Virus record (IMG/VR): IMGVR_UViG_3300045974_000067
Location: 5,714-69,713 of that record
Strand: one strand, 5' to 3'
Source of the DNA: a virus
Length of the DNA: 64,000 bases
In this document: piece after piece, positions 1,488 to 63,331 of the stretch
Position numbering within the stretch: the stretch's first letter is position 1
Layout: each line of letters opens with the position of its first letter
Program-made: the position numbers and the translations under genes
The notes under the pieces: generated by a model
Database searches by the model: none
Seen by the model: only the letters and a program-made list of their open reading frames with translations
Told to the model about the DNA's origin: nothing

Positions 1488-2051
1488 TTAAGAATGTTTT
1501 CTTGTGCTACGAGAAATTCTATACGGTACATTTGTATAAGTTTTAGAATTTAACATCTGGACAACAGCTTTTACAAGCATACCTGTTTCTTTTATGATCT
1601 CTTGTTTAGATATTTGGTAGGTATCGTATAGAGTTCTATACTTTAAAACTTGTTCATCTGTTAACTTAGACATTCCATTATTAGCGCCTGAAACATCTAG
1701 TTCTTTTAGATGTTCTCCGTACTTAATACCTAAAACATCAACAGAATGCCTAGCATTTGCATGTTCAGTTATCGCCTCTAAATTCTCATAACGATTATTA
1801 AGTTTATCTCCATCAATATGATTAATAACGTAACCATCAGGAATATTGTAATCAATATGAACCATATAAACAAGTCTATGGACAGGATATGTTTTTCCAA
1901 ACATATTTATACGTTTATAGCCGCCTGTAATAAACCCTATTTCTTTTGCTGTTATATTATTAACTACAATACCGTCCTTAGATACATTGATAACACCTTC
2001 TACAACTAAGTCTAAGAAGAACTGATCTCTTTCAATTGTTGATTTAGCCAT
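1488..2051 (-). CDS. Free-standing HNH homing endonuclease
   Basis: VHRLVY...INHIDGDKLNNRYENLE HNH motif plus C-terminal SKLT HTH-like tail. Confidence 0.88.
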   Translation of the reverse strand: MAKSTIERDQFFLDLVVEGVINVSKDGIVVNNITAKEIGFITGGYKRINMFGKTYPVHRLVYMVHIDYNIPDGYVINHIDGDKLNNRYENLEAITEHANARHSVDVLGIKYGEHLKELDVSGANNGMSKLTDEQVLKYRTLYDTYQISKQEIIKETGMLVKAVVQMLNSKTYTNVPYRISRSTRKHS

Positions 2052-4449: not shown

Positions 4450-5154
4450 TTAAATATGCTTCCAAGTTGATCCATCTATTACACAACGTATTGTAGTAGA
4501 ATCAACATCGAACATCTTAGCTATACTATAATTCGTAAAACCATCTGCATTTAATTTACGAATAATCGGTATATTGCTACTAGTTAATTTATTTGATAAA
4601 TTACCAATACTTACAGAATGCATTCTATTTTCTAAAGAAGAGACCCATTCTAGATTAATTAATTTATTATTTAATTTATTTGCGTCTATATGATTAACTT
4701 GTGGCCTATTTTCAGGATTCGGAATAAAAGCTAATGCAACTAATCTATGTATACCTGTTTGAATTTGACAGCCTTCAATCCAAACTTTAGTTTTTAAATA
4801 GCCATTCCCATCTATAGCACCATTTATAATGGTACCTTTTTCCAAATTAATCAATCTACCTAAATCAGATACAAGATAAAAATCTCCAACACTCTTCCAT
4901 AATTCATTGGAAATACCAATAGAATGATCCAAATTTCTTTTTCTTATTAATTCAGCATCTACAACTAAATTAATATTATCAAATAGTTCATACGCAATTT
5001 TTCTTAAATATATTGACTTTTGATTACTAGTTATTCTCAATGAACCTGAATTAGTAAATGTTGGAACAAGATAAGAGTTAGTTTTAAAACTAAAAACATA
5101 TCCTGTATTAGATAGAGAAAAGTTATCTCCAAAATCTTTCCAAATTTCATTCAT
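4450..5154 (-). CDS. Free-standing HNH homing endonuclease (NUMOD4-like N-terminal repeats)
   Basis: EIWK.../ELWK...YLVSDLGR repeats; IHRLVALAFIPNPENRPQVNHIDANKLNN..NLEW; C-terminal HTH. Confidence 0.9.
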   Translation of the reverse strand: MNEIWKDFGDNFSLSNTGYVFSFKTNSYLVPTFTNSGSLRITSNQKSIYLRKIAYELFDNINLVVDAELIRKRNLDHSIGISNELWKSVGDFYLVSDLGRLINLEKGTIINGAIDGNGYLKTKVWIEGCQIQTGIHRLVALAFIPNPENRPQVNHIDANKLNNKLINLEWVSSLENRMHSVSIGNLSNKLTSSNIPIIRKLNADGFTNYSIAKMFDVDSTTIRCVIDGSTWKHI

Positions 5155-10971: not shown

Positions 10972-10992
10972 TATAAGATACCATTATTTGCG
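10972..10992 (-). promoter_or_regulatory. Putative phage RNAP promoter, class B (minus CGCAAATAATGGTATCTTATA)
   Basis: 21-mer repeated at 11613, 51962, 53880 (near-identical) and 53055, 58586 (degenerate); followed by RBS. Confidence 0.75.
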
Positions 10993-26928: not shown

Positions 26929-29900
26929 CTATCGCCTATTACCTCTCTCGTAATTATGTGTATTGACTCCACCTGCAATTTCAGGTATCATCTTCTGGAT
27001 CTCACTACGAGTTTGTCTACTAACATCACCTGTAATATTAATATTAAAAGTAGATTGAGTTTGTGTTTTCTTAGCTGTAGGGATAGCTTTCAATGTATTT
27101 AAGGAAGGTGTCATAGGAGAGTAGTTTCCAACAATGCCACCATCAGCAAACTTAGGCATTGCTCCTGAATTAATACTATGAAGTAACTTGCCATATTTCT
27201 TGGTAGAATCTGCATTAACTACAAATTCACCATTGGAAAGTGCCGCCATAATACTATCAGAAGTACCTGTGCCTGGGCCATTCACTAGCCCACCACTAGC
27301 AAAACCAAGCCATGATGTAAAACTACTCCAACCAGAACTTATAGAATTGCCAATTCCTCCAAGACTAATTCCTCCAGTGCCACCAGAACCTCCAGAGAAT
27401 AGTCCTGTTAGACCTTTCCAGGCTGAACTTAATACATCACCTAAATTACTCCAGCCTTTAGAAAGTACGTCTGATAGACTAGTTTTAGCACTAGTATCCA
27501 TTGCATCACCAACAGATTTAGCACCAGTTGCAGAGCCATCTTCAATACCTTGCTTAATAGAAGTAGCAATATCTACACCATTCCCATTGTCAGAATATAA
27601 AGGATTATCAGTAGTAAGTTTGTTTTGGAATGGAGCAGTAACTTTAGCACCAATGCCTGTACCTACTTTTTCAAATCCACCAAAAGCACTTGACATATAT
27701 TTTTGAAGATCTTTATCCCAGCCTGTTTGTGTCATTAGACCATTTACAAATCCTGTAATAGCATTATCAAGAAAAGTAGACGTAAATTTATTAAACATAT
27801 CTTTAATAACATTGCCAGTAGTTGTCGTTCCAGTTATAATTCCTCTAATTCCAGAGATCATATCTGTCTTAACACTCTTTGCAAAATCAGTACCAGCTTG
27901 CATAGCTTCAGCAGATAGTGCTGGTTCAGACAATGCAGCAAACGCTTCCTTAGCAGCAAAGTTAATATTCTTAACAAAGGTACCCAAGTGCGTTTTAGCT
28001 TCAACTACCGTACTATCTAAAATACGTTGCGCTAATGCACCTTCTGCTGTGGTATTCTTAGCCTTATCAATGTCATCTAAAAATTTAAGAGTCTGTTGTA
28101 AATCCTCTGCCTTAATGTTTTTAAAGACGTCCATTGCTATTGTTTCTGCATTAGCGCCTTTAAGTGCATTATTTAATATTGACAAGGCTTCGGCATCTGT
28201 CTTAGCTTTAGAGACTCTATCAGTGAAAGGAGTAGTAGACGCTATTTGTGGTATTTCCGGCATTTTAAAAGAAGAAGTTGCAGCAATCTTTTCTGGTGTG
28301 AGTCTCTCGGCAATAGCCTTCATTACTTTATCTATAGCTACTTCATTTTCACCAGAGCCAGGTATAATCTTTGCCTTAGCTAAAGCAATAGGGTCTTTAG
28401 CAGCACGTAATGTATCAATATACTCAGCCATTGCAATAAGTTCTTCTTTAGACATTTTATTAAGTAAGTCTAAATTTTCAGTTATACCATTCTTCTTTAA
28501 CTCATCTGCAAGATAATTAGCAGTAGCATCTACAGTCATTACACTTGTACGTATTTGTTTAGCTAGTGTTCCATCCTTATCTACAGTAATTCCAAACATA
28601 GTCTTTAATTTCTCTAACCATGGAGAAACTAATGTAGTTATTTGTTCAAATGCTGTTGTGAATGTTCCAGTTACGTCATCTGTAGCAGCTTTTACTTCTG
28701 GAACATTAAACACTTCTTTGAATTTAGGAACATTTTTAGCTACATAATTTTTAGTTTCATCTGGGAGACTAGCAACATTTAATACACCTTTCTTTAATAC
28801 GTCAAAAGAAGGAATATGCGGATTAGCTTTCTTTAATAATTTGTCTAGGTTACCTTCACCCCAATTATAGGCTGCAGCAACTTTATCATAAGCTTCGGAA
28901 CCATACTTATCGAATAAATGTTTAAGATGTTCTATAGAGACTTTAATATTAGTATATGGATTAAATCTTTCATCTAAGAAATCGGCAGGTTTAGGACCAA
29001 CTGCTTCAATTGCCTTAGCTAGATCTTTAGTTCTTCCACCAAGTTCATTGTACAAGGTTACTACTTTTTCTTCCCAGACTTTTGCTGAATCAGAGATTTT
29101 AAGTTTTGCATCAGAAGCTACACCTAAGCCTAACTGCCCTACACCAATATTCCCAGTACGACTTATAGCTTCAGGATTAAAGCCTGATTCAGAATGTAGT
29201 AATTGTGATACAAAATCTGGATTAAGTTTATTCTTAGTAGCAATATCTCTAGCTGTTGCAATATAATTAGCAGTATTCGGAGATGCAGCATGGGCAGAGC
29301 CGATAGGGTTCATATTAGCAAAACTACTATTATACGCTTTTCCAAAGAACTCTTTAATAGCGCCTGCTGTATCTTTAGTCCAACCTTTAATTGTTTCTAA
29401 GATATGTTTTCCATTAGTATCAGATAACTCGTAAAGTTGTGCATCTATAACATCTCTTTGGGCTTTCAACTCGTCTATTCTATCACCATATGCTTGAGCT
29501 TGCGTTCCAGTAGCTGTTAAAGACTTAAACATTAATTTGTCTATTTGAGACTGAACATTACTTCTTTCTTCTTGTTTAGCTTCTATCTTTGGACTAGGTC
29601 TAATTCCAAGCAAGTCCTGTATCCAGATTTTACCTAGATGACTCCATTTTTCAAGCTGTGGAGAAAACCAATCCCAGTTCTTCCAAAGTGTATAGCCTGT
29701 CACAATAGCTGCACTAATACCTATAATAGCTAAACCAATAGGATTAGTAAAAGCAAACAATATCATAGAACTAATAGCTGCACCAACAGAGCTTCCAAGA
29801 AGTTGGCCTAACAAGGAAGAACCCATTACAACACCTATCTGTGCCCAACCTGGATAACCAACCATATCTTCTGCTATCTTAGATCCAATGTTAAAACCAC

Positions 29901-32490
29901 CGAGTGCTCCAAAGATACCACCTATACCAGCACCTGCAGTCATAACTCCTGACCTAAAAGCTTCTTTTGCTTCTCCAAGTTTCTTGCCTATATTAGAACT
30001 AACCTCTTTAAGACCATCTGTAGTTTTACTTAGATTCTTTATTTCACTACCAAGTGCTTGAGCATCTAATTTACGATCTCTAGCTGCTTGTACAGCAGAT
30101 GTCACGCTATCTCTAGCTGATTGAATGTCTGCACGAGAAGATAAAGTATTCGCTTGTGTAGCCCTTAGATTATTTAAGGCAGATGTTACATTACTATTTG
30201 CAGACTGTAACATATCCTTTTGTTTAGTTTGGAACAGGTCTAATTTAGTAGTATTTTCTGCAATTTTCTTGTCCATCATCCCTTTCGTAAATGCTTGAAC
30301 AATATTGCTACCAAATTTTGTTGGGAATGTAGCAAGAGTTGTAGCACCTTCAAGCATAAACTTTCTGCCACTTTCAAACAGAAGTGACATCTTAGCAATT
30401 AGTGCTAGTGTTCCACCAAAGCCTCTATCTCCAAAAATACCTGATCCAAATAACATATCAGTACTAAACTTAATAATTCTAAGCATACCTATCTGCAATG
30501 TACTCGTAATTTTATTTAAAGTTTCATCACTAATAATATTACCCGCAGATATACCAAAGGCAGTTGTAAGTAAACCAAATAGTGCACTCCTGACTGGACC
30601 TGCATCAATAGCCATAGTAATACCTTTAGCTACTACTAGAGCTACAGCACCAATAGCTGGTAATTGCAGCATTGGAGGTAGTGCATTTATAAAGTCATGA
30701 CCCATAATCCTCTGGCCAGATGATCTTTGAGGTCCACGTGCGACATTAGCTTCTGTATCATACGCTTGATTAGGTATTGTAGCTAAGAAACCAGGTACAG
30801 TACCTGGAGTAGTGTCTTTAATACTAAGCATTTGCTTAACAGTATGCGCTAGTGTAGACGCAGGATTTGTTAAAGTTTTTATTGCAGTATATGCTGCACC
30901 AACTGCTAATGCTAGTAGCTTAAATGAGCCTGTTAAACTACTAGAGAATAATAGTAGAATAGGCCCAACTGTCATTATAGTATCAAAGAAACCACCTAAT
31001 CCTATATTCTTAAACGCATCACTAATAAAGGTAGTAAACTCTTTAATATAGGCAATAGGCGTACCTAATAGCTTACCAATCCACATTATAATACCTTCTA
31101 CTAAATCTGGTATCCAAGAGTGTCCTATTACCCTGTCATATAACCAAAAGAAAGCTCTCTCGACTGTATTTACCCAGTCTAAAACTATTTTCTTCATTGG
31201 TTCTAAATGTGGTATAAACTTAGAGACATCAATTGTTTTAAAATTAAACCCAGTGAAGTTATTAATAACGTCAGAAACTTTAGATAACCCACTAAGCAAC
31301 ATAGATGGTAATCTAGTAAAGAAATTTAGTATATCTACTTCTAGGAATGCAATCTTAGTCTTAATATTATATACAATAACATCGAGCCTATCAGCAAATC
31401 TTGCAATAGCTAGCGCTGCATCATTAATCATCTCTGGCAAACCGAAGCCTTTCTTTCGATTAGCACCAAAGATTACACTATTAATAGAATTGAATAAAAG
31501 AAATACTGAATTATGTAAGTTAATAAATGCTTGAGCGAATGTAAGCCCTACGCTCTTGAACTTTTCATTGACTTCAGCAGAACCTTTAAGTAGTGCACCA
31601 AATACTTCTTTAGATGTTAATTGACCAGCAGCGCCCATTGCACGCAATTGTCCAGTAGTAACTCCTAAACTATCAGAAATTACTTTACCTAGAGCAGGAG
31701 CATCTTCAAGAACAGCTTTAAGATCTTGTCCTTGTAATGTACCAGCACTAAGACCTTGTCCTAGCTGTAAAATTGCCATACTAGCCATTTGTGCACTAGC
31801 ACCAGACATCGCAAGAGCTTTAGCTACTGTTTGTGTAACTACAGCTACATCATTCTGTGAAGTGCCAAGTGTAGATGAAGCGTTAGATAACTTTTGATAA
31901 AGTTCTGCAACATCTGCAATTTGCATTCTAGTAGATAATGCAACATTTCTAATATTATCAAATGCGAACTCAGCAGCTGGTGCTGTCTTAGTTACTAAAG
32001 CAATACGTGTATTAAGTCCTGTTAACGCATCAGATAGAGAAGTGATAGCAGCAGCAGTTCCTACTAATGCTGTTGCACTGCCTAAAAATACCATTAAATT
32101 ACCAAAACTATCTTTAGCAGACTCAATATTAGATTTAACAGTTGTTAATGAACTATTTATTGAAGCTAAAGAACTCTTATCTAAGGAAACATCACCTATA
32201 ATATTAGCTTTAGTGGGTTTTGAAATAGCTGTTTTAATTGAGGCAACTGTTTTGTCTAAAGTAGCAACAGATTTATTATTGTCTACAAAATCAATTTTAA
32301 TGCTTGAATTCTTTTTTACATCGGTAAGATTTTTATTAGCATTACTTAATACAGTGTTTACATCCACTCCTGATGTTTTAAAAACAATATCTGCTCTATT
32401 ACTGTTCAACGTATTTATTTTAGCTCGTAACCTATCAATTACGTTGTCTACAGCAGAGCCGTCAGCTACTAGTTGTAGTTCAATAGACAT
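26929..32490 (-). CDS. Tape measure protein with lytic transglycosylase (SLT) domain
   Basis: Tape-measure N-domain (QLGQGLSAGTLQGQDLKAVLE); SLT motifs ESGFNPEAIS, GVGQL, AAYNWGEG, ETKNYV; C-terminal FASGG..GPGTGTSDSI.A.LSNGEFV. Confidence 0.93.
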   Translation of the reverse strand: MSIELQLVADGSAVDNVIDRLRAKINTLNSNRADIVFKTSGVDVNTVLSNANKNLTDVKKNSSIKIDFVDNNKSVATLDKTVASIKTAISKPTKANIIGDVSLDKSSLASINSSLTTVKSNIESAKDSFGNLMVFLGSATALVGTAAAITSLSDALTGLNTRIALVTKTAPAAEFAFDNIRNVALSTRMQIADVAELYQKLSNASSTLGTSQNDVAVVTQTVAKALAMSGASAQMASMAILQLGQGLSAGTLQGQDLKAVLEDAPALGKVISDSLGVTTGQLRAMGAAGQLTSKEVFGALLKGSAEVNEKFKSVGLTFAQAFINLHNSVFLLFNSINSVIFGANRKKGFGLPEMINDAALAIARFADRLDVIVYNIKTKIAFLEVDILNFFTRLPSMLLSGLSKVSDVINNFTGFNFKTIDVSKFIPHLEPMKKIVLDWVNTVERAFFWLYDRVIGHSWIPDLVEGIIMWIGKLLGTPIAYIKEFTTFISDAFKNIGLGGFFDTIMTVGPILLLFSSSLTGSFKLLALAVGAAYTAIKTLTNPASTLAHTVKQMLSIKDTTPGTVPGFLATIPNQAYDTEANVARGPQRSSGQRIMGHDFINALPPMLQLPAIGAVALVVAKGITMAIDAGPVRSALFGLLTTAFGISAGNIISDETLNKITSTLQIGMLRIIKFSTDMLFGSGIFGDRGFGGTLALIAKMSLLFESGRKFMLEGATTLATFPTKFGSNIVQAFTKGMMDKKIAENTTKLDLFQTKQKDMLQSANSNVTSALNNLRATQANTLSSRADIQSARDSVTSAVQAARDRKLDAQALGSEIKNLSKTTDGLKEVSSNIGKKLGEAKEAFRSGVMTAGAGIGGIFGALGGFNIGSKIAEDMVGYPGWAQIGVVMGSSLLGQLLGSSVGAAISSMILFAFTNPIGLAIIGISAAIVTGYTLWKNWDWFSPQLEKWSHLGKIWIQDLLGIRPSPKIEAKQEERSNVQSQIDKLMFKSLTATGTQAQAYGDRIDELKAQRDVIDAQLYELSDTNGKHILETIKGWTKDTAGAIKEFFGKAYNSSFANMNPIGSAHAASPNTANYIATARDIATKNKLNPDFVSQLLHSESGFNPEAISRTGNIGVGQLGLGVASDAKLKISDSAKVWEEKVVTLYNELGGRTKDLAKAIEAVGPKPADFLDERFNPYTNIKVSIEHLKHLFDKYGSEAYDKVAAAYNWGEGNLDKLLKKANPHIPSFDVLKKGVLNVASLPDETKNYVAKNVPKFKEVFNVPEVKAATDDVTGTFTTAFEQITTLVSPWLEKLKTMFGITVDKDGTLAKQIRTSVMTVDATANYLADELKKNGITENLDLLNKMSKEELIAMAEYIDTLRAAKDPIALAKAKIIPGSGENEVAIDKVMKAIAERLTPEKIAATSSFKMPEIPQIASTTPFTDRVSKAKTDAEALSILNNALKGANAETIAMDVFKNIKAEDLQQTLKFLDDIDKAKNTTAEGALAQRILDSTVVEAKTHLGTFVKNINFAAKEAFAALSEPALSAEAMQAGTDFAKSVKTDMISGIRGIITGTTTTGNVIKDMFNKFTSTFLDNAITGFVNGLMTQTGWDKDLQKYMSSAFGGFEKVGTGIGAKVTAPFQNKLTTDNPLYSDNGNGVDIATSIKQGIEDGSATGAKSVGDAMDTSAKTSLSDVLSKGWSNLGDVLSSAWKGLTGLFSGGSGGTGGISLGGIGNSISSGWSSFTSWLGFASGGLVNGPGTGTSDSIMAALSNGEFVVNADSTKKYGKLLHSINSGAMPKFADGGIVGNYSPMTPSLNTLKAIPTAKKTQTQSTFNINITGDVSRQTRSEIQKMIPEIAGGVNTHNYERGNRR

Positions 32491-35710: not shown

Positions 35711-36895
35711 TTAGGAGTGAAACACAGGTAAAATCCCAAGAGACAAGGCTGAAGTAGCCTTACGCTTCCAGACACCCTTTGTAGTTGCATCAAGAGTGGT
35801 GTCAACCAGCGCTTCTTGAGTAGTGCCAGTAATCACGGCTTGATAGTCAACATCTGACGGGAACTTGGTAGCATCGCCAGTCCAATCATAACCAGCCGGA
35901 TGAGCAACATATCCCCAACGGTACCAAATATCAGTAGAACCGCCACCCTTGTATGCACGTGCATCACGGTAGATTTCAGTCGGGGTAGGAACTGCCAGAG
36001 CTTGCATGGCAACAGAGCCAGGAAGCACAACAAAGGAAGTCTTAGTACCAACGATATCTACACCTGCACCGCCGTTAAGAGCAGCAAGTTGTGCACTGCT
36101 AAAACCTTGTGAGGCACGAGTTTGAATCAGACGGAATTTACCACCAAAGATAGTAGTAAATGTGATATTACCATCTACAACACCAACATCATCCGTCAAA
36201 TTAGCTGAACGGAAAGATGCAACAGTCTCAGGTGATACGACCAAATAAGCATACTCAGGTTCGTAATCCTTCCATGCAGCACCAATAGCCTTCAGGAAGC
36301 CTTCAGCACGAGCAGCACCTTGAATAGCAGTAGTAGCTGCAATAACAGGAGCAGCACTCCCCAGATCCACATAGAATCCATAACGAGCACTAGTAGGATC
36401 ATTATCAAAGGTCTGACCACCAAGACCAGCAGAGCCAGAGCCAGTAGCCGCACCATTCAGAGCTTCACTAATAGCAACACCTTTCAGAACTGCAAGAATA
36501 GCATTATGCTCATCTTGTGCACGAGTTTCTGAGAAGTCACGACCAATCTTAGCCAGACCGTCTTGCTGTGTAACGATTTGCTGCATATTAACAGAAGTAG
36601 CACCATGCGTACGAACAGTCTTAATATAAGTACTATAGTCAGACGCAAAGGTAGTACCAGTGCCATTAGTAGAGTCAGTCAGAGAAGCAACATTGATAGT
36701 CGGGTTCAAAGGTTTGAACCAACGGACTTGACCAATGAAAGTTTCAGTAGACGTATCGATGTTGGGATTAGTTCCAACAATACCCGTTCCAGATAATTTC
36801 TTAGCACTAGTATATGCTTCGTCAGAGTAAGCAGTAATAGCAGCTTGTAGTACAAAATTTGATGCACCAGCCAAATCAGTTGTAGGCGTACCCAT
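35711..36895 (-). CDS. Major capsid protein
   Basis: 394 aa after scaffold, biased codon usage, R....GGG.TDIWYRWGYV.HP.GY.W C-terminal pattern. Confidence 0.85.
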   Translation of the reverse strand: MGTPTTDLAGASNFVLQAAITAYSDEAYTSAKKLSGTGIVGTNPNIDTSTETFIGQVRWFKPLNPTINVASLTDSTNGTGTTFASDYSTYIKTVRTHGATSVNMQQIVTQQDGLAKIGRDFSETRAQDEHNAILAVLKGVAISEALNGAATGSGSAGLGGQTFDNDPTSARYGFYVDLGSAAPVIAATTAIQGAARAEGFLKAIGAAWKDYEPEYAYLVVSPETVASFRSANLTDDVGVVDGNITFTTIFGGKFRLIQTRASQGFSSAQLAALNGGAGVDIVGTKTSFVVLPGSVAMQALAVPTPTEIYRDARAYKGGGSTDIWYRWGYVAHPAGYDWTGDATKFPSDVDYQAVITGTTQEALVDTTLDATTKGVWKRKATSALSLGILPVFHS

Positions 36896-36913: not shown

Positions 36914-37612
36914 TTATCTCTTCCCAATTTTCCCTTCCGCTGCTAATTTAATAACCTCGGCTTGAGACATTGAGAATAACGATTTATTTTCCCCGGAACC
37001 ACTTCCTCCACCACCATTATTACTAGAGTTCTGAGTTCCAGCGCCAGATGATGCTTTGACTTTAAACAAAAAAGATTGTTCTTCAGCAGAAGCAAAGGCA
37101 GTAACAAAGTCGTTAATAGAGATTCCGCTACGATGTACCCATTGGTTCTTATCGTTCTGAATTAATTGATCGACAATTTCCTTTTGAGCCATCTCAAAAG
37201 CTTTAGCATTCCTAAAATCTAGACCCTTAAGTGCATCACGCACAGCAACGTCCCTACTTAATTCGGTATTTTGCTTCTCAAGAGCTGCTAATTTAGCATT
37301 AGCTTCTGCAAGTTTCAATTCAGCAATTTCTTTATGCTTTCCTTGTTCTTCCAGACGTTTTAGTTCAGCTTCTTTTTCTTTGCGTTCAATCTCAGCCTGT
37401 TTAGCTAATGCTTCATCACGTTGCTTGTAAGCATTATCTAATAGCTTCTTTGTATCCTTTAATTGCTCTGCAACTTTCTCTTGAACAAGCTTGGCAATCA
37501 GATCCTTATCTTTGTCTTCAACAGACTTCTTAGCATCAGCTTCAGCTTGAGCTAAACGTTCTGCTTCTAACTCTTCAGCAGTTTTCTGATTGTTGTTTTC
37601 ATCACTCATCAT
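36914..37612 (-). CDS. Capsid scaffolding protein
   Basis: E/K/A coiled coil, FLFK...SGAG linker, short C-terminal helix; precedes capsid. Confidence 0.85.
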   Translation of the reverse strand: MMSDENNNQKTAEELEAERLAQAEADAKKSVEDKDKDLIAKLVQEKVAEQLKDTKKLLDNAYKQRDEALAKQAEIERKEKEAELKRLEEQGKHKEIAELKLAEANAKLAALEKQNTELSRDVAVRDALKGLDFRNAKAFEMAQKEIVDQLIQNDKNQWVHRSGISINDFVTAFASAEEQSFLFKVKASSGAGTQNSSNNGGGGSGSGENKSLFSMSQAEVIKLAAEGKIGKR

Positions 37613-37660: not shown

Positions 37661-39035
37661 TTATCCTATACCATAAAAGTAACGATTATCTTTAAAGTTC
37701 TCTTGAACTGTTGCAAGAATATCGCTCTTTGTTAGTATATCTTCCTTAGTAAGTATTTTACCACCTACTCTTGACCTTCCAGCCACAGGTATCAGGCCAA
37801 TATCAATTGCTTCATTTAAGTATTTATCATAAAGGTCTCTTGGGAAACCTCTTGCTAACATCTCATCTAAAGTCGACTTGATAGAGTCCTTTTCTACAGC
37901 ATTGGCATAGATGATCCTTAAAGCTTTTCGTGCATCTAGCATATCAGCTGCATTTGTAAAGAATGCGTCATGTATCGTCGAAGTTTGTATATTACTTTTC
38001 TTACCCCATAAATGAAATTGTTTAACAAGAGTGGCATCATTAGAGTGATTACCATTAACACCAAAAGCTGTACGTGCTCTTGTAGCATCAGCAATGTCAT
38101 TTATTTTACCAGGTTTATTTCTAAACTCTTCCCACCAATTAGGTTCAGTTCTTTGTGGTATTTGAAGTATGTTATTTACCCAATTACCATTAGCATCTTT
38201 ATAAGCTAATTTTTCTTCAAAGTTTTGAGTATAATTTTGTTCTAATATTTTGCCATCAAAATTAACCCATGGAATATTAGACCAATTCTTATCTAATTTA
38301 TTAGGATAGCCAACTTCGAAACCTTTAGTAATATCCTCAGAAAACAAAGAATAATTACCTATCTTAAATCCTGTTCTACGTCTTGTTGGTGTTTTAACAC
38401 CTGTAATTAATTCAGATGTAAAACTACCAGGCACATAACCAGGAATACGATTTAAAAGTTTCTCACGCAGCGCTTCATCTTTAATACCCATGATATTATT
38501 AAGCCATGTAGGTAATTTAACACCTTTCTTATAGCTACTTAATAAACTCTGCTTTAATATTGATTGAATATCAAAAGCACTTTGTGAAGGTTTAGAATTT
38601 ATTAAAAAGTCTTGTGCTAATCTACCAAAATACTTAGTAAAATCTTTTAAAATAGGAGTAGATGACTCTAAATTTTCGCTCATTATATTAGCTATTAATT
38701 TAAAGTCTTCAGGTGTTACTATTTTATTATAAGCTCTACTAAGTTTATCTACATAGTCTTTAGTCTTACTATCTAGGAAATATAATTGATCTATTAACTC
38801 AGCACCAGGATCTAATCCTTTGTTAAAGACGTCTTTAATATCTTGTCTAAGTGCTTTTAATTCATTATAAGTCTCAGGATCAAAACTTTCATAGCGTGCC
38901 ATACGAGCGCTAATCTCACTTAATACAGCATCTCGCTCAGCAGCTTTAACAACAAGTGTTTCAGATTCTTTTCCTAATACCTTAGATAGTTTAGCTTCAA
39001 CACTGAAGATACCAGTGCGTTCACCTGCACCATAC
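37661..39035 (-). CDS. MuF-RNA polymerase fusion, exon 2 (YGAG..., NGNHSNDA, motif C IHDAF)
   Basis: Continues motif B after intron removal; carries second catalytic Asp. Confidence 0.9.
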
Positions 39036-39329
39036 CGATTTGTTAAACAGAATTCGTTAGATTCTGTCAATTTACTACAAAGCAAATATAGTTCATTTAA
39101 GTTTCCTATATTTGCTTTGTATAAATTCTGCATATTCCTATGCAGTCCAGACTATATCATCATCCCTAAGGATGTCGGGCGCTTCCACTGGACTCCCAGT
39201 GTACTCCTTTCGGATAGTCGTTGCACCTTACTGTTTTCACAGTCTTGGCTCAGGATTGACCGTTCTGGTTTTTCCCTGAGTTCACCCGATTGTCATTTAG
39301 ACATTACTGTCTAAAGCCTCTAATAAATA
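39036..39329 (-). ncRNA. Group I self-splicing intron, ORF-less, 294 nt
   Basis: P1: exon CCUU pairs with IGS GAGG (U-G at splice site); P7 AACGACUAU (39214-39222); S element GAUGAUAUAGUCUGG; P9 hairpins; terminal G; removal restores KQQNMVTL-YGAG in frame. Boundary could shift by 1 nt (Phe instead of Leu). Confidence 0.9.
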
Positions 39330-42300
39330 AAGGTCACCATGTTCTGCTGTTTGGCAGCTTTACGTAAATCTTTCTCAGTAAGTCCTAACTTTTGATTTAA
39401 TTTAATAAATCTAGGATCATTAAAAGTAGCATTAGCAATTTCATCGTATAGACGCTTCTTTTGGTCAGTAGGTACTACATTACTTAGGCTAGCTAACTGC
39501 TTATTTTTAGTAGTTAAAGCAATAATCTGTGCGCCACTACTAGAAGCATCTTGCTCAAGAGCAATATTAATACGATAGTTAGCAAGTCTACCCAGGCTTG
39601 CGGCACTGTAATCCCCTCCTAAGAATTCGTCTATTTTAGCTGTTTCTAATGCAAGTCTTAATAACTTTCCTTGTTCTTCTCCATCAATTTGTGCAAGAAG
39701 CTTATTCTCCAAGATAAATCGTATATCATTAGGTTTAGCTCTACGAATAGCATTACCAATAGCAATAAGATCTTTACGATGATCCATTGCTATTTGTTGT
39801 CTACCTAGAATAGATAATGAATTATGGCTACCTTCTAAAGCATCAGATAGTCCACCTATAAATCCACCTATTTGGTCTTGTAGATTATAAAAACCTAATT
39901 CACTAAAAGGCTTAGCTTGTGCAGTATTAAGAAATGGTCTGAATGTTTCACCTGATTGTGGCCCTATAAAGCCACGCTCGTATATACGGCCACGATGATC
40001 AATAAAAGGAGTATTACTAAATGACATATCTTTTTCACGTAGCCAGGACATAGCCTTAAGACGTTCATATGCATCTCCTCTTTCAACCATGTATTGTCTG
40101 TATATATTTAGATCATTATAATATTGTGCTTTACCTTTATCATCTTGAAAAGTAATTAATTTATTTATAAAGTCATGAAATTCAGGATCTACTTTATATT
40201 GTGCTTGTGAAGCCCAATTAAGAGCATCAGTCATATTCTTGTCGATAAGTTCTACAGGTAAGTCATTAAAGCTAGAAGTTGAAGTAATAGGTATACGAGT
40301 GTCTGTAAGTCCAAATATACCATCATCTATAAAATATGTCTTATAGCCTTCTTTAACTAATAATCTATTCTTATCTGTAGTAACACCTACACGTAAGCCT
40401 ACTTCTACTTTCCGTGTGAGTCTTGCATAATTTTGTATTCTAGGATCAGTTATCCTAAGATTAACACTAAAAGTATCATAGTAAGGGCCGAAGTATTGTC
40501 CACTCATACGACTCTTCATACGTCTTTTCTGTACACCAAAAGTCTCTAGCTCATAGAAACCTTTGTCTTTAGCATCATCTAACAACTTGACACCTAAAGT
40601 ATACCATTCATTCCTACTACCTCGATAGTTAGCAAGATTATATAAGTCACGTCCTAATGCTACAGCAAGTTGATCTCTATCAGGACTATCTGCTAATGAG
40701 AGTCTCTTAGCAAACTTTAAATAAAAATCTTTTAGATTCTGGTCTGTGAGTCTTATCTTTAATTTAACGGGTATCTTGTAATCTAAAATATTACGAAGCT
40801 GATTAGCTATTTTAGGTAAAGTTTTATCTTCCCATTTGTTTACAGCTTTAATATTAGCAATAAATGTATCATGTAGTTCTTGTAATTGTACAGGTCCAAG
40901 AACAGGATCAATATAATTAGCTTGTTTTAATTTAAATAGTAGATTAGCATCTTTACGTAACTGTGTTTCCATATAATCTGAAACATTCATTACATCAAAC
41001 TTAATCTGACCATTTAAAACAGCTTTTAAATTAGTCCATGCTTCATCATTTTCTCTAAATCTTCCAAATGTTATTCTTAAGTTATCTGCTATAGCAGCTC
41101 TTTCATTAATACTCATTGTATCTGCTAAGTCATTTACAAACTTAGTAATAAATTCTTTATCTTTTTGTTTAAGAACTATACTCTCATTAACTAATCTAAG
41201 ATTATTATTAAGTACACTAGGATTAGGTGCAAACATCCTAGTATCTTCATAACGACTAGTAATAGGATTGAACTTTAAGTTAGCTTCAGTAGGTGGTGTA
41301 TTTAGCACACGCGTCTTAGCAGCTTTCTTAGTACCTATTAAATTACCACGATAGTTTGTTAATGATAAAGTACCATCAAGTTCTTGTGTTTGCAATAAGT
41401 AGTATTGTTTAAGAGCAGCAGTCATTTCTGCATCACCAATAATTTCATCTGGTCTAGCAGCACCTAACTTAAGTGTATCTAACTTATCTTTAGCAAAAGC
41501 AAATCTACGAGTATCACCAGGTAAACTACCAAAGTCACTAGTAGTCATTTGATTAAGTTGTTTAATTCCTACATTAGCACCTGATGGTGTTATAAATTTA
41601 TCTAGTTGTAATTGACCACTTTGAAATTTCTGTAATCTATTAAGATCGCCAATATGCTTTATTTGTACTTCTTGTGGTTGTCTAAGTAGCCAGTCATTAT
41701 AGCTTTCTTTTAATGGTGATTGTCCATCATAAAAGGCTATTTCTTTATCAGTAAGTCCTGCAAGATTCCTTTTGCGTATCTGAGCAATACCTTCATTAGT
41801 ACCTAATTGATCATAGGACTTAGTAATAGGTATAGTTGTAGAACGGCAATACCAATGAGCAGGTGGCAAGTGTGCAGTATCTCCGACAGGATAAATATGT
41901 CCATCTCTGCTTGCACATAATGGTGTTGTACGAGAGTCTAATACTGCTACATATTGATAGCCATTTAAAATTTTTTCATTAGCTTTATAAACTTGATGAT
42001 CTGCTTGAGCATATACTGAAGTCATAGATGTTACAGTTAAACCATTAGCTTGATTTTTAGTAATATTAAAAGTACTCGATACAGTTTTAGCAATAGAAGT
42101 CTCATTGAGACCATCTGCAATACCTTTACGTATAATAGCTTCAATACGTATTCTTTCATTCTTGCCTATACCTACCCAACCTTCTTGCAATACTACATTA
42201 TTATATAAAGGTTGCTTAAGTACTACATTCTCTGCAATGCTTCTTGGAGGTTGCTTAGTACGCCAAATATTACCAACAGCTTTATCAATATTGTTAGTTG

Positions 42301-42571
42301 TGAAAGACACTTGATCTTTAAATAAATCTAATAAAGATCTCGAATGCACATTATACGTATTACTAATTGTCTTTTCTATTTCAGTATTTAACTTAACTTT
42401 AAATTGATCAAAAGTATCACCTTGTAGCTTAGATGAACGGATTAATCCATCTACTCTAACAGCATGACCATCAATAATTAACTCTAACTTGCCTTTTGTA
42501 TTGTCAGTATAGAGTCTAATCATTGCTGCTCTATCTACAGCTTTATCATAAATTTGTGTGTTGGCATTCAT
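39330..42571 (-). CDS. MuF (SPP1 gp7-like head morphogenesis)-T7-type RNA polymerase fusion, exon 1; spliced product 1538 aa
   Basis: N-terminal MuF motifs YVAVLDSRTTPLCASRDG..Y, PPAHWYCRST, SYNDWLLRQ; polymerase motifs IDHRGRIY, EQDASSSGAQ, LYDEIA, RKAAKQQNMVT. Confidence 0.9.
40753..40771 (-). promoter_or_regulatory. Class A promoter-like motif inside the MuF-RNAP gene
   Basis: TTATCTTTAATTTAACGGG, one mismatch to TTATCATTAATTTAACGGG. Confidence 0.5.
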
Positions 42572-42618: not shown

Positions 42619-44247
42619 TTAAGCTGCTTTAAGATTTGAGACATTATTCATCATACTATTCATTTGATTTACTTTATCAGCATAATTAGGATCAGAATTA
42701 GGCTTATTAACTACTTCGTCTTGAGTCATTTCAACTTGGCCTTCTTCATCGTCATAATCAGCAGGTACCATATCGTTCTGCTTGAGTAGCATAAGCCACA
42801 ATGTACGAGGAATAAGACCATTCTGATACCACTCTGTAGCGAGCCTAAGCCAATCGGCACCTAGAGGCACAGGATTAAAGTCAGCAGATAACTGAAATTC
42901 CACATCTGTAGATTTAAACTGTGTACCATAGCGCCAATTTAACATAAATGCAATAATATCAGCCATTTGATTAGAGACTTTAATATTAAGTGTTCCTAAT
43001 TGTGCTGTCTGGGCTGCATTACGAATTTCTAATGCTACACCTGATTGCATATTCTCAGGGCTAAGCATACGAATACCTAATCTAGCTAATTCTTCTATAG
43101 TTGCCAATATAGCTCTGTCCATGTCTTGTAAAGCAGCTGTAGGTGTATCCAAGACAGAAGCTGAATCACCTTGTCTAAGCTTAATCCAAGAACCAAGCCC
43201 AGCGTCAACAATAGCACCGAATTCTTCATCTGTAATATCTGCCGCAATAACAGGTGTATAAGTAGCTGCACCTAAGAGTAAATGATTACGACGACTAACT
43301 TTATTATACAATGCAACTTCACGGTCAATAAGCGGTGTAAGCATAGGCTCAATAATATCAATACTACCATTAAGAGGCCACGCTGGTATAACTTTTAGAC
43401 GCTCACCATTAGAAGTAATATTTTCAATAGTCTCTATTAACTCAAATCCACCATTACCACTTGGAGATGGGCCATTAGAAGCACCTACTGTATATTTCTG
43501 TTGAATAACACCATTGACTACTGGTATAGCTACATTTTGAGTAGGCTTTTGATACTTACGAATACGATAGTATCCATCTACTATTTCATGTACCCATACT
43601 GTATCTAATAGTGTAGGGTGAAACTCATTAACACCATATGTTTCTTCATAATTTCTAACAATAACTCGTTCAAGTATTTGTGAACCATCTACAGAGGCAA
43701 CGCTAAGTTTCCAATTAATAACTGACTCAGCATTCCATAATACAGGATATGGTTTAATTGCTAATACATCTTCTCTAGTCATTCCTTCAGTATTTTCTAC
43801 TTTAGGATAATCTACGTATACCCAAGCACGGCTAGTCTGCATCTCTTCCCACAATGCGCGATCTAAGAATGATACTAAAGGAGAACTATCTTGTGCAAAT
43901 GCATCCATAATCCATTGGTAAGCATCTGCAGGTGCTGTATCAGGTAATTTAAGTTGTGGTTGCTTCCTAAGTAGTCCACCAATAATTATTCGTGCATATT
44001 GTGTTACAATACCAGGTAGCTCAGCTTCTGCTTTAAAGAAATTATACTGTGTTTGTGTCATTGATTGAGAGAAAGGAATAAGCAAATTTGAGAAGAATAG
44101 ATTGTCAAGAATACCGTCAAAGTCTTTAACGAATCTTTCTCCATTACAAACTGCACGACTCTTTTCCCATAATTGGTTTATTGATTCGTAAGATGGACAA
44201 GGATCACATACAGTACGTCCTTGTTGAGCGGCATTCACAACACTCAT
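42619..44247 (-). CDS. Portal protein (DUF4055 type)
   Basis: 542 aa after terminase; WVYVDYP, AESVINW, IPAW, SGVAL motifs. Confidence 0.88.
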   Translation of the reverse strand: MSVVNAAQQGRTVCDPCPSYESINQLWEKSRAVCNGERFVKDFDGILDNLFFSNLLIPFSQSMTQTQYNFFKAEAELPGIVTQYARIIIGGLLRKQPQLKLPDTAPADAYQWIMDAFAQDSSPLVSFLDRALWEEMQTSRAWVYVDYPKVENTEGMTREDVLAIKPYPVLWNAESVINWKLSVASVDGSQILERVIVRNYEETYGVNEFHPTLLDTVWVHEIVDGYYRIRKYQKPTQNVAIPVVNGVIQQKYTVGASNGPSPSGNGGFELIETIENITSNGERLKVIPAWPLNGSIDIIEPMLTPLIDREVALYNKVSRRNHLLLGAATYTPVIAADITDEEFGAIVDAGLGSWIKLRQGDSASVLDTPTAALQDMDRAILATIEELARLGIRMLSPENMQSGVALEIRNAAQTAQLGTLNIKVSNQMADIIAFMLNWRYGTQFKSTDVEFQLSADFNPVPLGADWLRLATEWYQNGLIPRTLWLMLLKQNDMVPADYDDEEGQVEMTQDEVVNKPNSDPNYADKVNQMNSMMNNVSNLKAA

Positions 44248-48419: not shown

Positions 48420-48740
48420 ATCGTTATAAATAAATAATCATCAATACAATTAGTTATTTATAGATATTATAAAACTAACTATAAATTATTAATATTTATT
48501 ATATAATAAATAATCATTAATACATTATATACTTATAGATATTAATATTTATTATATAATAAACATTATCAATACTTAATATACTTATAGCTAGCTTTAT
48601 AACTACTCTATATAGCTACTCTTTAATAATACTCTTAATTATATATAATAATAATACCCATCTATACATGGTATACTTATAGCTAGCTTTATAGCTATAC
48701 TTATAAGTACTCTTATAGCTAGCTATATAGCTATACTAAG
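48420..48740. repeat. Extremely AT-rich repeat/palindrome region (possible origin or packaging site)
   Basis: TATTAATATTTATTATATAATAAA at 48487 and 48540; TATACTTATAGCTAGCTTTATA at 48580 and 48672; palindrome TATAGCTAGCTATA at 48714. Confidence 0.7.
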
Positions 48741-48751: not shown

Positions 48752-48777
48752 CTTATCATTAATTTAACGGGCTTGAG
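48752..48777 (-). promoter_or_regulatory. Putative phage RNAP promoter, class A (late operon)
   Basis: CTTATCATTAATTTAACGGGCTTGAG, immediately after strong terminator, heading the packaging/structural block. Confidence 0.8.
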
Positions 48778-52916: not shown

Positions 52917-53053
52917 AACCCTACTCATAGAGTAGGGCTAGTAATCCGTGCCTCTTTTGAAAGTCTAAGCAATTGTGCGCACAATCGGTTAGGCTGTTTA
53001 AGGCCATCACGGTAGCCTTATTGGGTGGGCGGGTAGTTTACTAGCGCGAACGC
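52917..53053 (-). ncRNA. Candidate small pseudoknotted RNA with own promoter and 3' hairpin
   Basis: Starts at predicted +1 G of class B motif; GCG-UUCG-CGC hairpin; closing stem GCUAGUAA/UUACUAGC; loop CCGUG complementary to CACGG; 3' hairpin AGCCCUACUC/GAGUAGGGUU. Confidence 0.6.
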
Positions 53054-53054
53054 T

Positions 53055-61135: not shown

Positions 61136-61642
61136 TCATTTATCTCTAAAGAACTCACCATGTATTTCTTTTGCTACGTCACACCATGCTAAATGCGCTG
61201 AATACTCATCTTTAAAATTACCAATGTATTTAACTCTTTCATTTATTCTAATAGATGCTCTCCAACTATTACTTTGTTTATTCCAATGTACACCCTTATA
61301 AATACTAGATTTGTTTTCTCTTTTGCTAGAATTAAGAAGATTTTGAGAATGTGTTGCTAACCTTAAATTTGAGATTCTATTATTTAAAGGATCATTATCA
61401 ATATGGTCTACTATGAAATTTTCAGGAATATTATTTCCAAATAGTATCCAAACTAAATTATGAATTCTATATAATTTTTCATTTATTTGAACAACCCAAT
61501 GACCTTTCTTATTAGGACTTCCAGCTAGAGTACCAGCAATTCTATTAGAAACAGTATTTTTCCATAGTAATCCACCGGTTACTTCGCTATATACAAATAA
61601 GCTATCTATTTCATCTTTATTTAATAAATTAATTATCTTCAT
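61136..61642 (-). CDS. HNH endonuclease with AP2 domain
   Basis: IHNLVW...VDHIDNDPLNNRISNLRLAT..QN; SIYKGVHW...WRASI...IG.F.....A; ATGA overlap with nrdJ stop. Confidence 0.9.
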   Translation of the reverse strand: MKIINLLNKDEIDSLFVYSEVTGGLLWKNTVSNRIAGTLAGSPNKKGHWVVQINEKLYRIHNLVWILFGNNIPENFIVDHIDNDPLNNRISNLRLATHSQNLLNSSKRENKSSIYKGVHWNKQSNSWRASIRINERVKYIGNFKDEYSAHLAWCDVAKEIHGEFFRDK

Positions 61643-62522
61643 TTTACAGGACACGTCCCCGATACACATTCATCTGCACCTTCAAATTCAGCATTTAATA
61701 CAGTTGTTATAATACGAGTCTTTTTCACAAGATTATCATACTTTTCTTTAGTAATAGTTTCATAAGGAGCTTGAGCAAAACCATGTTCAGAGTGCAGTAA
61801 GAAAGATAAACTCTTATGATTCTTACTATAATGTCTGGACAAGTAGTCCTTAATAGCAGGTAATTCTTCTTTCTTATAATACACTGTGCATGATACAGCA
61901 TTATCAGACCAAACTTCTTGCATTTGTTTAACTACTTTTAATTGTTCCAAAGCAGTCATATCTTTAGCAAGTACTGTGCCCTCTGGATATGCAAATGGGA
62001 ATGTTACAACTACTGTACCATAGTCTTCTGTGCCATCAAAGTTCTTCTGGTACTCTACTGGATATCCATGATCTTTGCATACTTTAACTAACGAATGATC
62101 TGCAGAAATCCGTATTCTACGATACATATACTGAGCGTAGCCAGGGTGTATACCAGCAGTAACCCCAGGCAATAGAGAAAGAGTCCCGCTAGGTTGGATT
62201 GTTGTGAGTTTGATTGATTTGTTGAATCCATGGATTTCACTATACCTATTATCAAAGTCTCTGAGATATTTATAGCATTCATCTAGCCAACTTAGTTGTT
62301 CCTTAGAGCATTGAAGAATGCCGCTTAATGAGATACCCATACGCTGGTTCTTCTTGACAACTGCATCAGTTTCAGGATGGTGTGCTGATAATTGTAATGA
62401 GTGTTTATTTATACGATATAATAGTGTTGCAACATCAAATAGTTCTTCTTTAGATTTAATATTAGGTAGAAAGATTGTAGCTAAACAGCATGTCTCGTAT
62501 GGCTCTAATGATTGTTCTGCAC
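61639..62522 (-). CDS. nrdJ: Class II (B12-dependent) ribonucleotide reductase, exon 2
   Basis: (C)AEQSLEPYETCCL, RMGIS.SG, TTIQPSGTLS, WSDNAVSCTV, QAPYE, C-terminal CVSGTCP. Confidence 0.9.
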
Positions 62523-63331
62523 CGTTATTGTTAAAAATGATTGGTCATTTCTGCCAATCTCTATATGTTACCATATAGACCAGACTATATCATCATCCAA
62601 TTTCTTGGAGCTTATCGTCCGATTTTGTACTGAAATGATGGAAGAATAAATGGACTTATAATATCTTCAAACATTGAAGAGAAAGAATTAGGTACTGCTA
62701 AATCAAACCTTGCACCTTTCTTTCTTGTATTAATTTCAAGTCCAAATGTATCTTTTAGGCTATCTTTAATCAACATTAGATCACCATAGCTAAGATTATT
62801 AAAATGTAATCTGTAACTAGGTTTAGAATTTTCCCAACGTTTATCTTGATACCTACTACCATCAGCCATAAATGCTATTGCAAGAAACTCAGCATCCATA
62901 AATGTTAACATATGCGGATCTACAACCTTATGACCCTCAATATACATTCTTTCATGAATCTTAGTAAATATTGGATGGTTGAAGCTTTGAAGTCTTATTT
63001 GCTGTTGACGATTAAATCCGTCTTTCGTATAGATTGTTGGAAGAGATTTTTTATAACCTAGTGGAATCTCGTTTAAACTCTCTATTACTTTATCAATATA
63101 ATCTTCATTCTTCTCAATCATATTTACGACCAGACATCCATTTATTGAATCTCCAGGAAACATAACATGACCATCAAACATTGCAAAAGCATACAAGCGT
63201 TTATTCAGATCTTTAATCATAGTCGTTACACCTCTCATAGCGAGTTGGTACGGTATTGACCCTAAGGTTATTCACCGTGTTTAGATAAGTTAAATTCGAT
63301 TTACATTACTGTAAAAAGCCGCTAGCAATTA
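62523..63331 (-). ncRNA. Group I intron (809 nt) in nrdJ, carrying a homing endonuclease
   Basis: Exon AAUCCGU pairs with IGS GCGG (U-G); P7 AACGACUAU; S element GAUGAUAUAGUCUGG; terminal G; splicing restores T|GT of the NPCAEQ catalytic Cys. Confidence 0.92.
62612..63220 (-). CDS. Intron-encoded LAGLIDADG homing endonuclease (two-motif)
   Basis: LYAFAMFDG and LAIAFMADG motifs; lies between P7 and S element (P8 loop). Confidence 0.85.
   Translation of the reverse strand: MIKDLNKRLYAFAMFDGHVMFPGDSINGCLVVNMIEKNEDYIDKVIESLNEIPLGYKKSLPTIYTKDGFNRQQQIRLQSFNHPIFTKIHERMYIEGHKVVDPHMLTFMDAEFLAIAFMADGSRYQDKRWENSKPSYRLHFNNLSYGDLMLIKDSLKDTFGLEINTRKKGARFDLAVPNSFSSMFEDIISPFILPSFQYKIGR

Follow-up and report, generated by a model that had tools for sequence, protein, structure and literature searches.

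N4-like and crAss-like short-tailed phages are known to carry RNA polymerases (RNAPs) in the virion, and so are jumbo myoviruses or myoviruses with deoxyuridine (dU) in their DNA. In the available portion of PMC5512222, the N4 enzyme gp50 is given as a protein of ~3500 amino acids (aa) with an N-terminal injection region, a central polymerase and a C-terminal encapsidation region; an injected T7-type RNAP such as this can start a polymerase relay, and N4-like virion RNAPs are confined to N4-like phages and prophages. The same portion describes MuF domains as head components of portal-terminase phages which occur in fusions with enzymatic effectors, for which delivery to the host cell is assumed; the C-terminal domains of these other MuF proteins are RNases, ADP-ribosyltransferases, RelA/SpoT and other effectors, and no RNAP is mentioned there among the MuF fusions (PMC5512222). 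Here, a gene is described that joins a MuF domain to a T7-type RNAP. It was found in a window of 64,000 nucleotides (nt) corresponding to bases 5714-69713 of the 69,713-bp IMG/VR virus record IMGVR_UViG_3300045974_000067, the genome of a pond phage (~34% G+C) that is complete according to CheckV. Our preferred reading, held with moderate confidence, is that the product of this gene is a virion RNA polymerase built on a new plan.

The gene and its parts are given below; columns are called invariant when they do not vary among 18 aligned full-length cluster representatives, whose identity to the first of them is no more than 23-53%.

37661..42571, minus strand: whole MuF-RNA polymerase gene, two exons and an intron, with a spliced product of 1538 aa
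39330..42571, minus strand: exon 1, residues 1-1080 and two bases of codon 1081 (an alternative register ends at 39329)
39036..39329, minus strand: group I intron of 294 nt, without an open reading frame (ORF); Rfam RF00028 core at 39128-39339
37661..39035, minus strand: exon 2, residues 1081/1082-1538 and the stop codon
41114..42565, minus strand: MuF/SPP1-gp7-type head-morphogenesis module, residues 3-486 (phrog_241 'head morphogenesis', E 1.4e-54)
41831-42145, minus strand: Phage_Mu_F core, residues 143-247 (PF04233, E 2.4e-14, 54.4 bits for a cut-off of 29.6)
37664..41224, minus strand: T7-type single-subunit RNA polymerase module, residues ~450-1538, interrupted by the intron
39980..40000, minus strand: T/DxxGR motif DHRGRIY, residues 858-864, R and G columns invariant
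39533..39556, minus strand: motif A EQDASSSG with the catalytic Asp, residues 1006-1013, D-A-S-.-S invariant
39332..39364, minus strand: first part of motif B, RKAAKQQNMVT, residues 1070-1080, directly followed by the intron
39011..39034, minus strand: second part of motif B, YGAGERTG, residues 1082-1089, Y and G invariant
38033..38053, minus strand: GNHSNDA, residues 1409-1415, D invariant
37958..37975, minus strand: motif C IHDAFF with the second catalytic Asp, residues 1435-1440, D invariant

The two exons are carried by the minus-strand ORFs 39320..42571 (P0001, 1083 aa) and 37661..39133 (P0002, 490 aa). Between them, the Rfam model Intron_gpI matches at 39128-39339(-) with 95.8 bits (gathering score 50; E 2e-23), and in the Rfam alignment P1 is formed by CCUUU paired with AGAGG, with a U.G wobble at 39330. 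P0001 ends with ...RKAAKQQNMVTF-IY-stop while YGAGERTG begins at residue 34 of P0002. In all 14 intron-less homologs examined the junction reads as an uninterrupted QNMV[TR][FL]YGAG, and all tblastn matches of P0002 in the phage collection begin at residue 34, which is TAT at 39034. Two splice registers are compatible with these data, 39330|39035 which gives Leu and 39329|39034 which gives Phe; either one removes 294 nt, leaves a G as the last nucleotide of the intron and results in a stop-free product of 1538 aa, the first being favoured because of the U.G pair at 39330. The 92-nt 3' extension of the intron (39036-39127) folds into two strong hairpins (-29.4 kcal/mol, z -6.3, 0/200 shuffles as good), as expected for a peripheral P9 extension.

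The boundary of exon 2 is independently supported by contigs from two other studies (X2 record 10 and X4 record 26), which are free of mismatches over 38918-39034 and 38912-39034, respectively, and which beyond 39034 share one sequence unlike that of the window. A contig from a third study (X3 record 21) follows exon 1 down to 39335 before diverging, and near-identical strains therefore hold different insertions at neighbouring codons. A 3' splice site at 39128, where the Rfam match ends, was also considered and would leave a 31-aa in-frame insert in motif B. It was rejected, the insert being absent from the 14 intron-less homologs, and is also incompatible with the start of the tblastn matches at P0002 residue 34, with the hairpin folding and with the contig divergence at 39034. 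The score above the gathering threshold, the U.G pair at the 5' splice site, the terminal G and the exact restoration of the frame identify the element as a group I intron, for which self-splicing is predicted.

At the N-terminus, assignment to PF04233 is indicated by a profile score above the curated cut-off together with both signatures of the family, LDSRTT at residues 211-216 and PPAHW.CRS at residues 236-244 of the spliced product, whose columns L-D-.-.-T...C and P-P-.-H-.-.-C-R-S are invariant. The fusion gene is the only PF04233 match in the 69.7-kb genome. With a single MuF gene in a complete genome, the MuF function of the head thus travels with the polymerase. The gene also has the position typical of PF04233 proteins, next to a portal gene in the head module, as predicted from its neighbours:

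42619..44247, minus strand: portal gene, directly upstream of the MuF-RNAP gene (phrog_145, E 3e-46)
36914..37612, minus strand: scaffold gene, directly downstream of the MuF-RNAP gene (phrog_206, E 3.5e-7)
35711..36895, minus strand: major head protein gene, after the scaffold gene (phrog_247, E 1.9e-18)
26929..32490: tape measure protein, 1853 aa (best phrog E 1.3e-57)

The portal gene ends 48 nt before the start of the MuF-RNAP gene. The same arrangement seems to be kept in relatives, in which a frame of >450 codons ends beside the MuF-RNAP frame in 37 of the 50 cases with enough upstream DNA; 28 of these 37 upstream frames could be aligned and are portal homologs, 45-73% identical to the portal of the window. 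A complex prediction for the portal (542 aa) and MuF residues 1-440, run without controls, gave a score of 0.00 and a mark of 0.32, from which no conclusion is drawn in either direction. The length of the tape measure protein indicates that the phage is long-tailed.

The remaining part of the product, residues ~450-1538, is a very divergent but complete T7-type RNA polymerase, a conclusion to which sequence motifs, profiles and a structural model all point. In the spliced product, motif B reads RKAAKQQNMVT-(L/F)-YGAGERTG (residues 1070-1089), and K...K...Y-G of this motif as well as both C-terminal Asp are among the invariant columns. We take the residues of the catalytic motifs to be the equivalents of T7 D537, K631, Y639 and D812, GNHSNDA presumably corresponding to the T7 H784 region. 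A search of the spliced protein with the Pfam models Phage_Mu_F and RNA_pol had been suggested as a check. With the two exon products as queries, the former was recovered as described above, and RNA_pol (PF00940) was recovered on the exon 2 product (E 1.2e-5, 24.8 bits), over the cut-off of 22, but not on that of exon 1, which remained under it (E 0.009, 15.3 bits). In a six-frame PF00940 search of the phage's own genome, the two pieces jointly exceed the cut-off (22.4 bits, and 40.8 with neighbours). The two halves further match phrog_414 with E values of 1.5e-8 and 4.5e-7, and RNA_pol is found at E <= 0.001 in 16 of the 18 full-length representatives.

For the closest relative without an intron, the polymerase module (L037:2183-5542, 1120 aa) was modelled by AF2 using a 46-row alignment, with a pLDDT of 80.4 and a pTM of 0.78. 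When this model was compared with the PDB using Foldseek, complexes of T7 RNAP came out on top (E 5.5e-17, probability 1.00; target-normalised TM 0.46-0.56 over ~1100 alignment columns), followed by mitochondrial RNAPs at ~1e-15, with a total of 73 matches at E <= 0.001. In BFVD, the first match was a 1463-aa entry (E 3.9e-58, TM 0.74, 27% identity), the length and accession series of which suggest that it is the fusion protein of the DSS3 phages (see below); it was followed by phage T7-like RNAPs at ~1e-18 and by pieces of N4-like virion RNAPs at 2.3e-12 to 1.5e-8. The model thus places the enzyme with the T7-like polymerases in its predicted fold and outside the N4 gp50 type. Assignment to PF00940 is supported by the profile cut-off and the catalytic motifs and, in the model, by the overall fold with its N-terminal domain, thumb, palm and fingers, and the fused polymerase is predicted to perform promoter-dependent RNA synthesis.

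A profile built from 25 full-length homologs has a single match below 0.001 among PDB sequences, namely the archaeal putative transcription regulator PH1932 (1uly; E 0.00016). This match covers profile positions 681-808 (~residues 680-805), an N-terminal part of the polymerase that is conserved in all relatives.

The extent to which the gene is interrupted in relatives was surveyed in the 120 closest database proteins (60-73% identity). The majority (77) are uninterrupted with motifs A, B and C, 42 are devoid of motif C and one is odd. Among the 42, 39 are 1050-1200 aa long and mostly end at or beside the motif B codons, after ...KAAKA, ...QNMV or ...QNMVTF, while the other three (1412-1416 aa) end just ahead of NHSNDA. 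Introns are thus apparently common in this gene among relatives. These interruptions, together with the weak RNA_pol matches (E 0.009 and 1.2e-5) and marginal matches to PDB sequences, could be taken as signs that the polymerase-like part is an inactive relic that serves as a structural or DNA-binding domain of the head and in which the intron reflects decay. This is very improbable given that the catalytic Asp, the Lys, Tyr and Gly of motif B and the T/DxxGR residues are invariant at 23-53% identity, that 77/120 homologs are uninterrupted with all motifs, and that the intron of the window restores the frame exactly. Moreover, the insertions sit at the most conserved codons, as is the habit of homing introns, which indicates constraint on the polymerase and not decay.

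Other putative homing elements were detected in the same genome. A second group-I-like insertion (62523-63331) splits a ribonucleotide reductase gene and contains a LAGLIDADG ORF (62612..63238; PF03161, E 9e-19); it was not reported by Rfam at the gathering threshold. A 39-nt block, 79% identical, is common to this insertion (62560-62598) and to the RNAP intron (39127-39165). In addition, three free-standing HNH endonuclease genes (PF13392) occur on the minus strand at 1488..2051, 4450..5154 and 61136..61669, with E values of 4.7e-13, 1.7e-7 and 1.9e-16, respectively. The genome is thus heavily colonised by homing elements.

The fusion is widespread. When P0002 was compared with 1.84 billion cluster representatives, 66 proteins were retrieved at E <= 0.001 with no ordinary T7-like RNAP among them, and Phage_Mu_F was detected in 18/18 of those that are 1411-2073 aa long, which, as far as these sequences go, indicates an obligate fusion for this polymerase clade. 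Nine shorter hits were scanned, and in two of them (785 and 812 aa) the alignment does not start before ~residue 630 of the fusion; relatives of 780-812 aa may be fragments, exon products or truncated forms. A word-indexed protein search yielded 488 proteins at E <= 0.001 among 8000 scored candidates, and a relative is encoded in 365 IMG/VR contigs. In the best 80 of these 365 loci, the frame is open across motif A in all 80, with 1286-1578 codons, the shorter frames being truncated where their contigs end. In a collection of 50,697 phage records, the protein was covered only in EBPR siphovirus 1 (54.6% identity) and in the roseophages DSS3_VP1 and DSS3_PM1 (~30%), which belong to the Naomviridae. 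In DSS3_VP1, a 1463-aa fusion gene lies between the portal and major head genes. In EBPR siphovirus 1, the gene has been annotated as gp47 'head protein', gp48 'HNH endonuclease' and gp49 'hypothetical'; the gap contains a sub-threshold group I match (40.5 bits, E 1.6e-8) and the HNH gene.

Since the record is metagenome-derived, an assembly or gene-calling artefact that unites two unrelated genes might be considered. It is practically refuted by the same continuous frame in 80/80 related IMG/VR loci and in the cultured DSS3_VP1 and DSS3_PM1. Five public sequencing runs, all of DNA from pond and wetland metagenomes and none of RNA, match the window, and a 45.7-kb contig from one such run is identical over the whole gene stretch, although this run may be the source sample.

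The observations on which the original prediction was based are thus confirmed: a spliced ORF of 1538 aa between the portal and scaffold genes, MuF/SPP1-gp7 motifs at its N-terminus, all of the T7-RNAP catalytic motifs that had been named in its C-terminal part, and a different, stand-alone T7-type RNAP elsewhere (see below). Its expectation that automated annotation would break or misname the gene agrees with the three EBPR siphovirus 1 entries, with the 42/120 truncated close homologs and with 'SPP1 gp7 family putative phage head morphogenesis protein', the sole source name found for the family. The survey of the fusion's spread that had been called for is provided by the 365 IMG/VR contigs and the three phages above. 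As for the caveat that many characterised homologs would reduce the novelty, homologs are indeed many and include cultured Naomviridae, but none was found to be characterised. No description of a MuF-RNAP fusion was found in the literature: 'RNA polymerase', 'RNAP', 'head morphogenesis' and 'minor head' do not occur in PMC8323127 as far as its main text is concerned, although its supplementary tables of genes may say more on the DSS3 gene, 'RNA polymerase' and 'MuF' do not occur in PMC12669031, and neither do 'RNA polymerase' and 'virion' in PMC12697855. The interpretation given to these observations is partly supported. The tests bear out a single spliced gene that unites MuF with a complete T7-type RNAP of intact catalytic residues, its place among the head genes and the presence of a different RNAP elsewhere, while loading of the polymerase into the capsid by MuF, its ejection and independence from host RNAP are inferred. 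The second RNAP of the phage and two families of promoter-like sequences are located as follows:

7617..9878, minus strand: stand-alone T7-like RNA polymerase, 753 aa (PF00940, E 9.4e-66; phrog_414, E 6.1e-116)
6451, minus strand: class A copy ahead of the SSB/DNA polymerase block
19828, minus strand: class A copy ahead of the fibre genes
48756-48771, minus strand: class A copy ahead of the packaging-head block
53960, minus strand: class A copy ahead of the gene at 53834
40756..40771, minus strand: class A copy inside the MuF-RNAP coding sequence, 1 mismatch, ~1800 nt into the gene
10972..10992 and 11613-11633, minus strand: class B promoter-like elements ahead of the gene cluster with the stand-alone RNAP, which they precede by 1.1-1.7 kb

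The two polymerases of the genome are only remotely similar to each other (hhalign probability 10%, E 0.003, 193 columns), by which a recent origin as paralogs is ruled out. The pair is kept in the window, in DSS3_VP1 and in a complete 69,732-bp relative with 47% G+C (G001), and the partial EBPR record has the fused RNAP gene only. The stand-alone RNAPs of G000 and G001 are 51% identical, while for the fused gene the comparison made, that of G001 (locus L078) with the relative P0007 used as query, gives 58%; the two values are too close to each other to link either polymerase to a promoter class.

The class A motif, CCGTTAAATTAATGA, has 5 minus-strand matches at <=2 mismatches for 0.31 expected, and nearly the same core occurs in five copies in G001. 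In the 80 related loci, several of which are near-duplicates so that the counts do not represent independent events, the core CCCGTT[AG]AATTAA occurs on the coding strand of 46 and never on the opposite strand. In 32 of the 46, it starts 5-10 nt past the MuF-RNAP stop codon, ahead of the scaffold gene; of the others, 7 have two copies 343-856 nt downstream and 1 has a copy 45 nt upstream. An exact core ~1800 nt inside the gene, as in the window, was found in 6/80 loci, all of them among the 8 that score closest to the window. In this sub-lineage, the head-gene promoter has apparently been relocated into the MuF-RNAP gene, and transcripts from the putative internal copy would bear the intron and exon 2 as a 3-kb leader. 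At this internal copy (40756-40771) the similarity spans 42 nt.

The class B motif, ...CGCAAATAAGGGTATCTTATA..., occurs on the minus strand in five exact core copies and one copy with 1 mismatch, and every copy is closely followed either by a ribosome-binding site with its start codon or by a short piece of non-coding sequence. G001 has two class B copies with an identical core at the same place upstream of its stand-alone RNAP gene. The two promoter-like families, with class B upstream of the second RNAP gene, would fit a cascade; neither polymerase can be paired with one of the classes on this basis. Sigma-70-like sites were not enriched at 46-64 kb (68 for 75.7 +/- 8.8 in shuffles), which is a weak test.

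Two further observations were made near these sequences. The class B core GGTATCTTATA at 53065 (53053-53075, minus strand) is followed by a G+C-rich, structured-looking sequence with no ribosome-binding site or ORF. The region 48500-48740, between the packaging genes and the class A copy at 48756-48771 that lies immediately upstream, contains 3-4 copies of a partly palindromic unit of ~31 nt (repeat families D10, D15 and D19), a packaging site, an origin and an operator array being the candidate functions.

For a virion RNA polymerase, the following course of events is proposed. The MuF-RNAP gene would be transcribed late, together with the portal and head genes, the motif B group I intron would splice out to give the 1538-aa protein, and the N-terminal MuF/gp7 module would then recruit this protein to the procapsid through the portal, in the manner of MuF-family minor head proteins. 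The DNA would thereby be enclosed together with a small number of complete T7-type RNAP molecules, which at the next infection would exit the capsid along with the genome. The ejected polymerase would start transcription at one class of phage promoters, most likely class B because it precedes small early-type genes and the cluster of the second RNAP. The stand-alone T7-like RNAP would then read class A, ahead of the replication, packaging, head and fibre genes.

The gene belongs to the late block and follows the class A copy at 48756-48771, as would also be the case if the fusion were a late polymerase, working in the producing cell on class A late genes either MuF-tethered or cleaved, with packaged copies that have no role in the next infection. 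A late RNAP encoded beside its main targets is conceivable, all the more so with class A lying directly past the gene in 32/80 relatives. Nevertheless, we consider this unlikely: a conserved stand-alone RNAP is already present, the MuF link is kept in 18/18 long representatives, which is hard to explain if it were dispensable, and no prohead protease gene was seen between the portal and major head genes, so that no machinery for cleavage is apparent.

The minus strand holds nearly all long ORFs of the window, and genes run in a single direction along the 69.7-kb genome. Such a layout is one in which transcription-driven genome entry works in T7. With its catalytic core intact, a packaged polymerase could thus have another task, pulling the genome in by transcription or laying replication primers, without a distinct early programme. 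This was judged slightly less likely again than a late polymerase, as the 69.7-kb record showed neither terminal repeats nor defined ends, which leaves the polarity of entry unfixed, and as two promoter-like families across the genome fit a staged programme better; it overlaps with a virion polymerase that starts early transcription rather than excluding it.

A broader proposal, which goes beyond a virion polymerase and is put forward only tentatively, is that of a lineage of long-tailed phages comprising hundreds of freshwater, wetland and marine genomes, including the Naomviridae, with a programme free of host RNAP, in which the MuF-tethered RNAP enters at the portal, reads class B, including the copies ahead of the second RNAP gene, and hands over to that second enzyme, which reads class A. 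The homing introns of motif B would then add a switch, unspliced mRNA giving a MuF protein of 1083 aa with a dead polymerase stub, and the rate of splicing could set the number of capsids that are given active enzyme.

Several points weigh against a virion RNA polymerase. No published virion proteome of any member of the family was found in the literature, and as to presence in the virion, ejection and polymerase activity, all members are known from their genes alone. By our own reasoning, a folded protein of 175 kDa cannot pass the tail tube of a siphovirus, and ejection would need unfolding and refolding. The assignment of the RNAP comes from motifs, from Pfam and PHROG matches and from the predicted fold of a relative, not from that of the window's own spliced protein, and the matches of the 25-homolog profile to polymerases among PDB sequences are marginal (N4 RNAPII, E 0.08; T7 RNAP, E 0.17-0.31). 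Splicing is likewise known from DNA sequence only. The assignment of promoters is circumstantial, as class B could serve the stand-alone RNAP or the host enzyme. Finally, dU-DNA was considered as a reason for a virion polymerase in this phage. In DSS3_VP1 and DSS3_PM1, dT is replaced by dU (PMC8323127). The families PF00383 and PF12917, given for the dU pathway of DSS3_VP1 in PMC12697855, were not found in the genome of the window, thymidylate synthase families not having been searched, and this reason was discarded.

Other features of the genome bear no direct relation to the fusion gene. The ORF at 13058-16363 on the minus strand (1101 aa) has a G+C content of 46-48% against ~34% for the genome and contains internal repeats (55-72-nt families at 14025-15450); its sole match is C-terminal and concerns a PHROG of unknown function (phrog_18251, E 4e-29). 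A tail or host-recognition protein gained by horizontal transfer is a possible identity. A tail fibre-like gene of 1695 aa, with matches to central tail fibres (phrog_31, E 1.4e-16), contains at 21456-21815 on the minus strand a 30-nt period repeated x9 head-to-tail that encodes 10-aa repeats. Beyond the window, the same genome encodes an 868-aa primase/helicase (L086:601-3207, minus strand; phrog_239, E 8e-129), whose residues ~303-629 match terminase-like PHROGs; this middle part may be an intein or another inserted domain.

If the proposed function is true, a compact T7-type enzyme with a MuF capsid address in long-tailed phages would represent a third, independent route to a virion RNAP, and a full transcription machine would be added to the small effectors that make up the range of MuF cargo. 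It would also explain early-gene expression in an abundant, globally distributed phage group, provide a new orthogonal pair of polymerase and promoter, and require the 'head morphogenesis' label to be changed on hundreds of database entries. The idea is directly testable in the cultured DSS3_VP1 and DSS3_PM1.

These two Naomviridae are among the closest known systems. Their gene, annotated as 'head morphogenesis' or 'minor head protein-like', has the same fusion and the same position between portal and head genes, and is accompanied by a second, stand-alone RNAP; it differs by an identity of ~30% and by being intron-less. With phage group I introns (RF00028), the intron of the window shares a high-scoring core, the 5' U.G pair, the terminal G and a location in the most conserved codons of an essential enzyme; it differs in being ORF-less and in lying in motif B of an RNA polymerase, whereas relatives have other introns at neighbouring codons and at a second site ahead of NHSNDA. 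With T7 RNAP and T7-like RNAPs (PF00940), the fused module shares the T/DxxGR, A, B and C motifs and a predicted fold that aligns over its whole length. Its identity to T7 RNAP is however ~12% and its length ~1090 aa, with insertions, compared to 883 aa, and in the full-length representatives seen it never stands alone.

The likeness to the virion RNAP gp50 of N4 (Schitoviridae) lies in a T7-type single-subunit RNAP that here, as judged from genes, would presumably be enclosed in the capsid and enter with the DNA, in a second phage RNAP for the next stage, and in polymerase modules which in both systems are hard to detect by sequence. N4 is short-tailed, whereas the protein described here has 1538 aa, an N-terminal MuF module as its capsid address and a phage with a long tail; it is not a giant protein with flanking regions from a short-tailed phage, and the resemblance is functional only. 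Finally, with MuF/SPP1 gp7 proteins and MuF-effector fusions (polyvalent proteins and MuF-toxins) it shares an N-terminal Phage_Mu_F domain, the vicinity of the portal gene and a C-terminal enzymatic domain, but the cargo is in this case a whole transcription enzyme of 1100 aa that would serve the phage, and not a small effector directed at the host.

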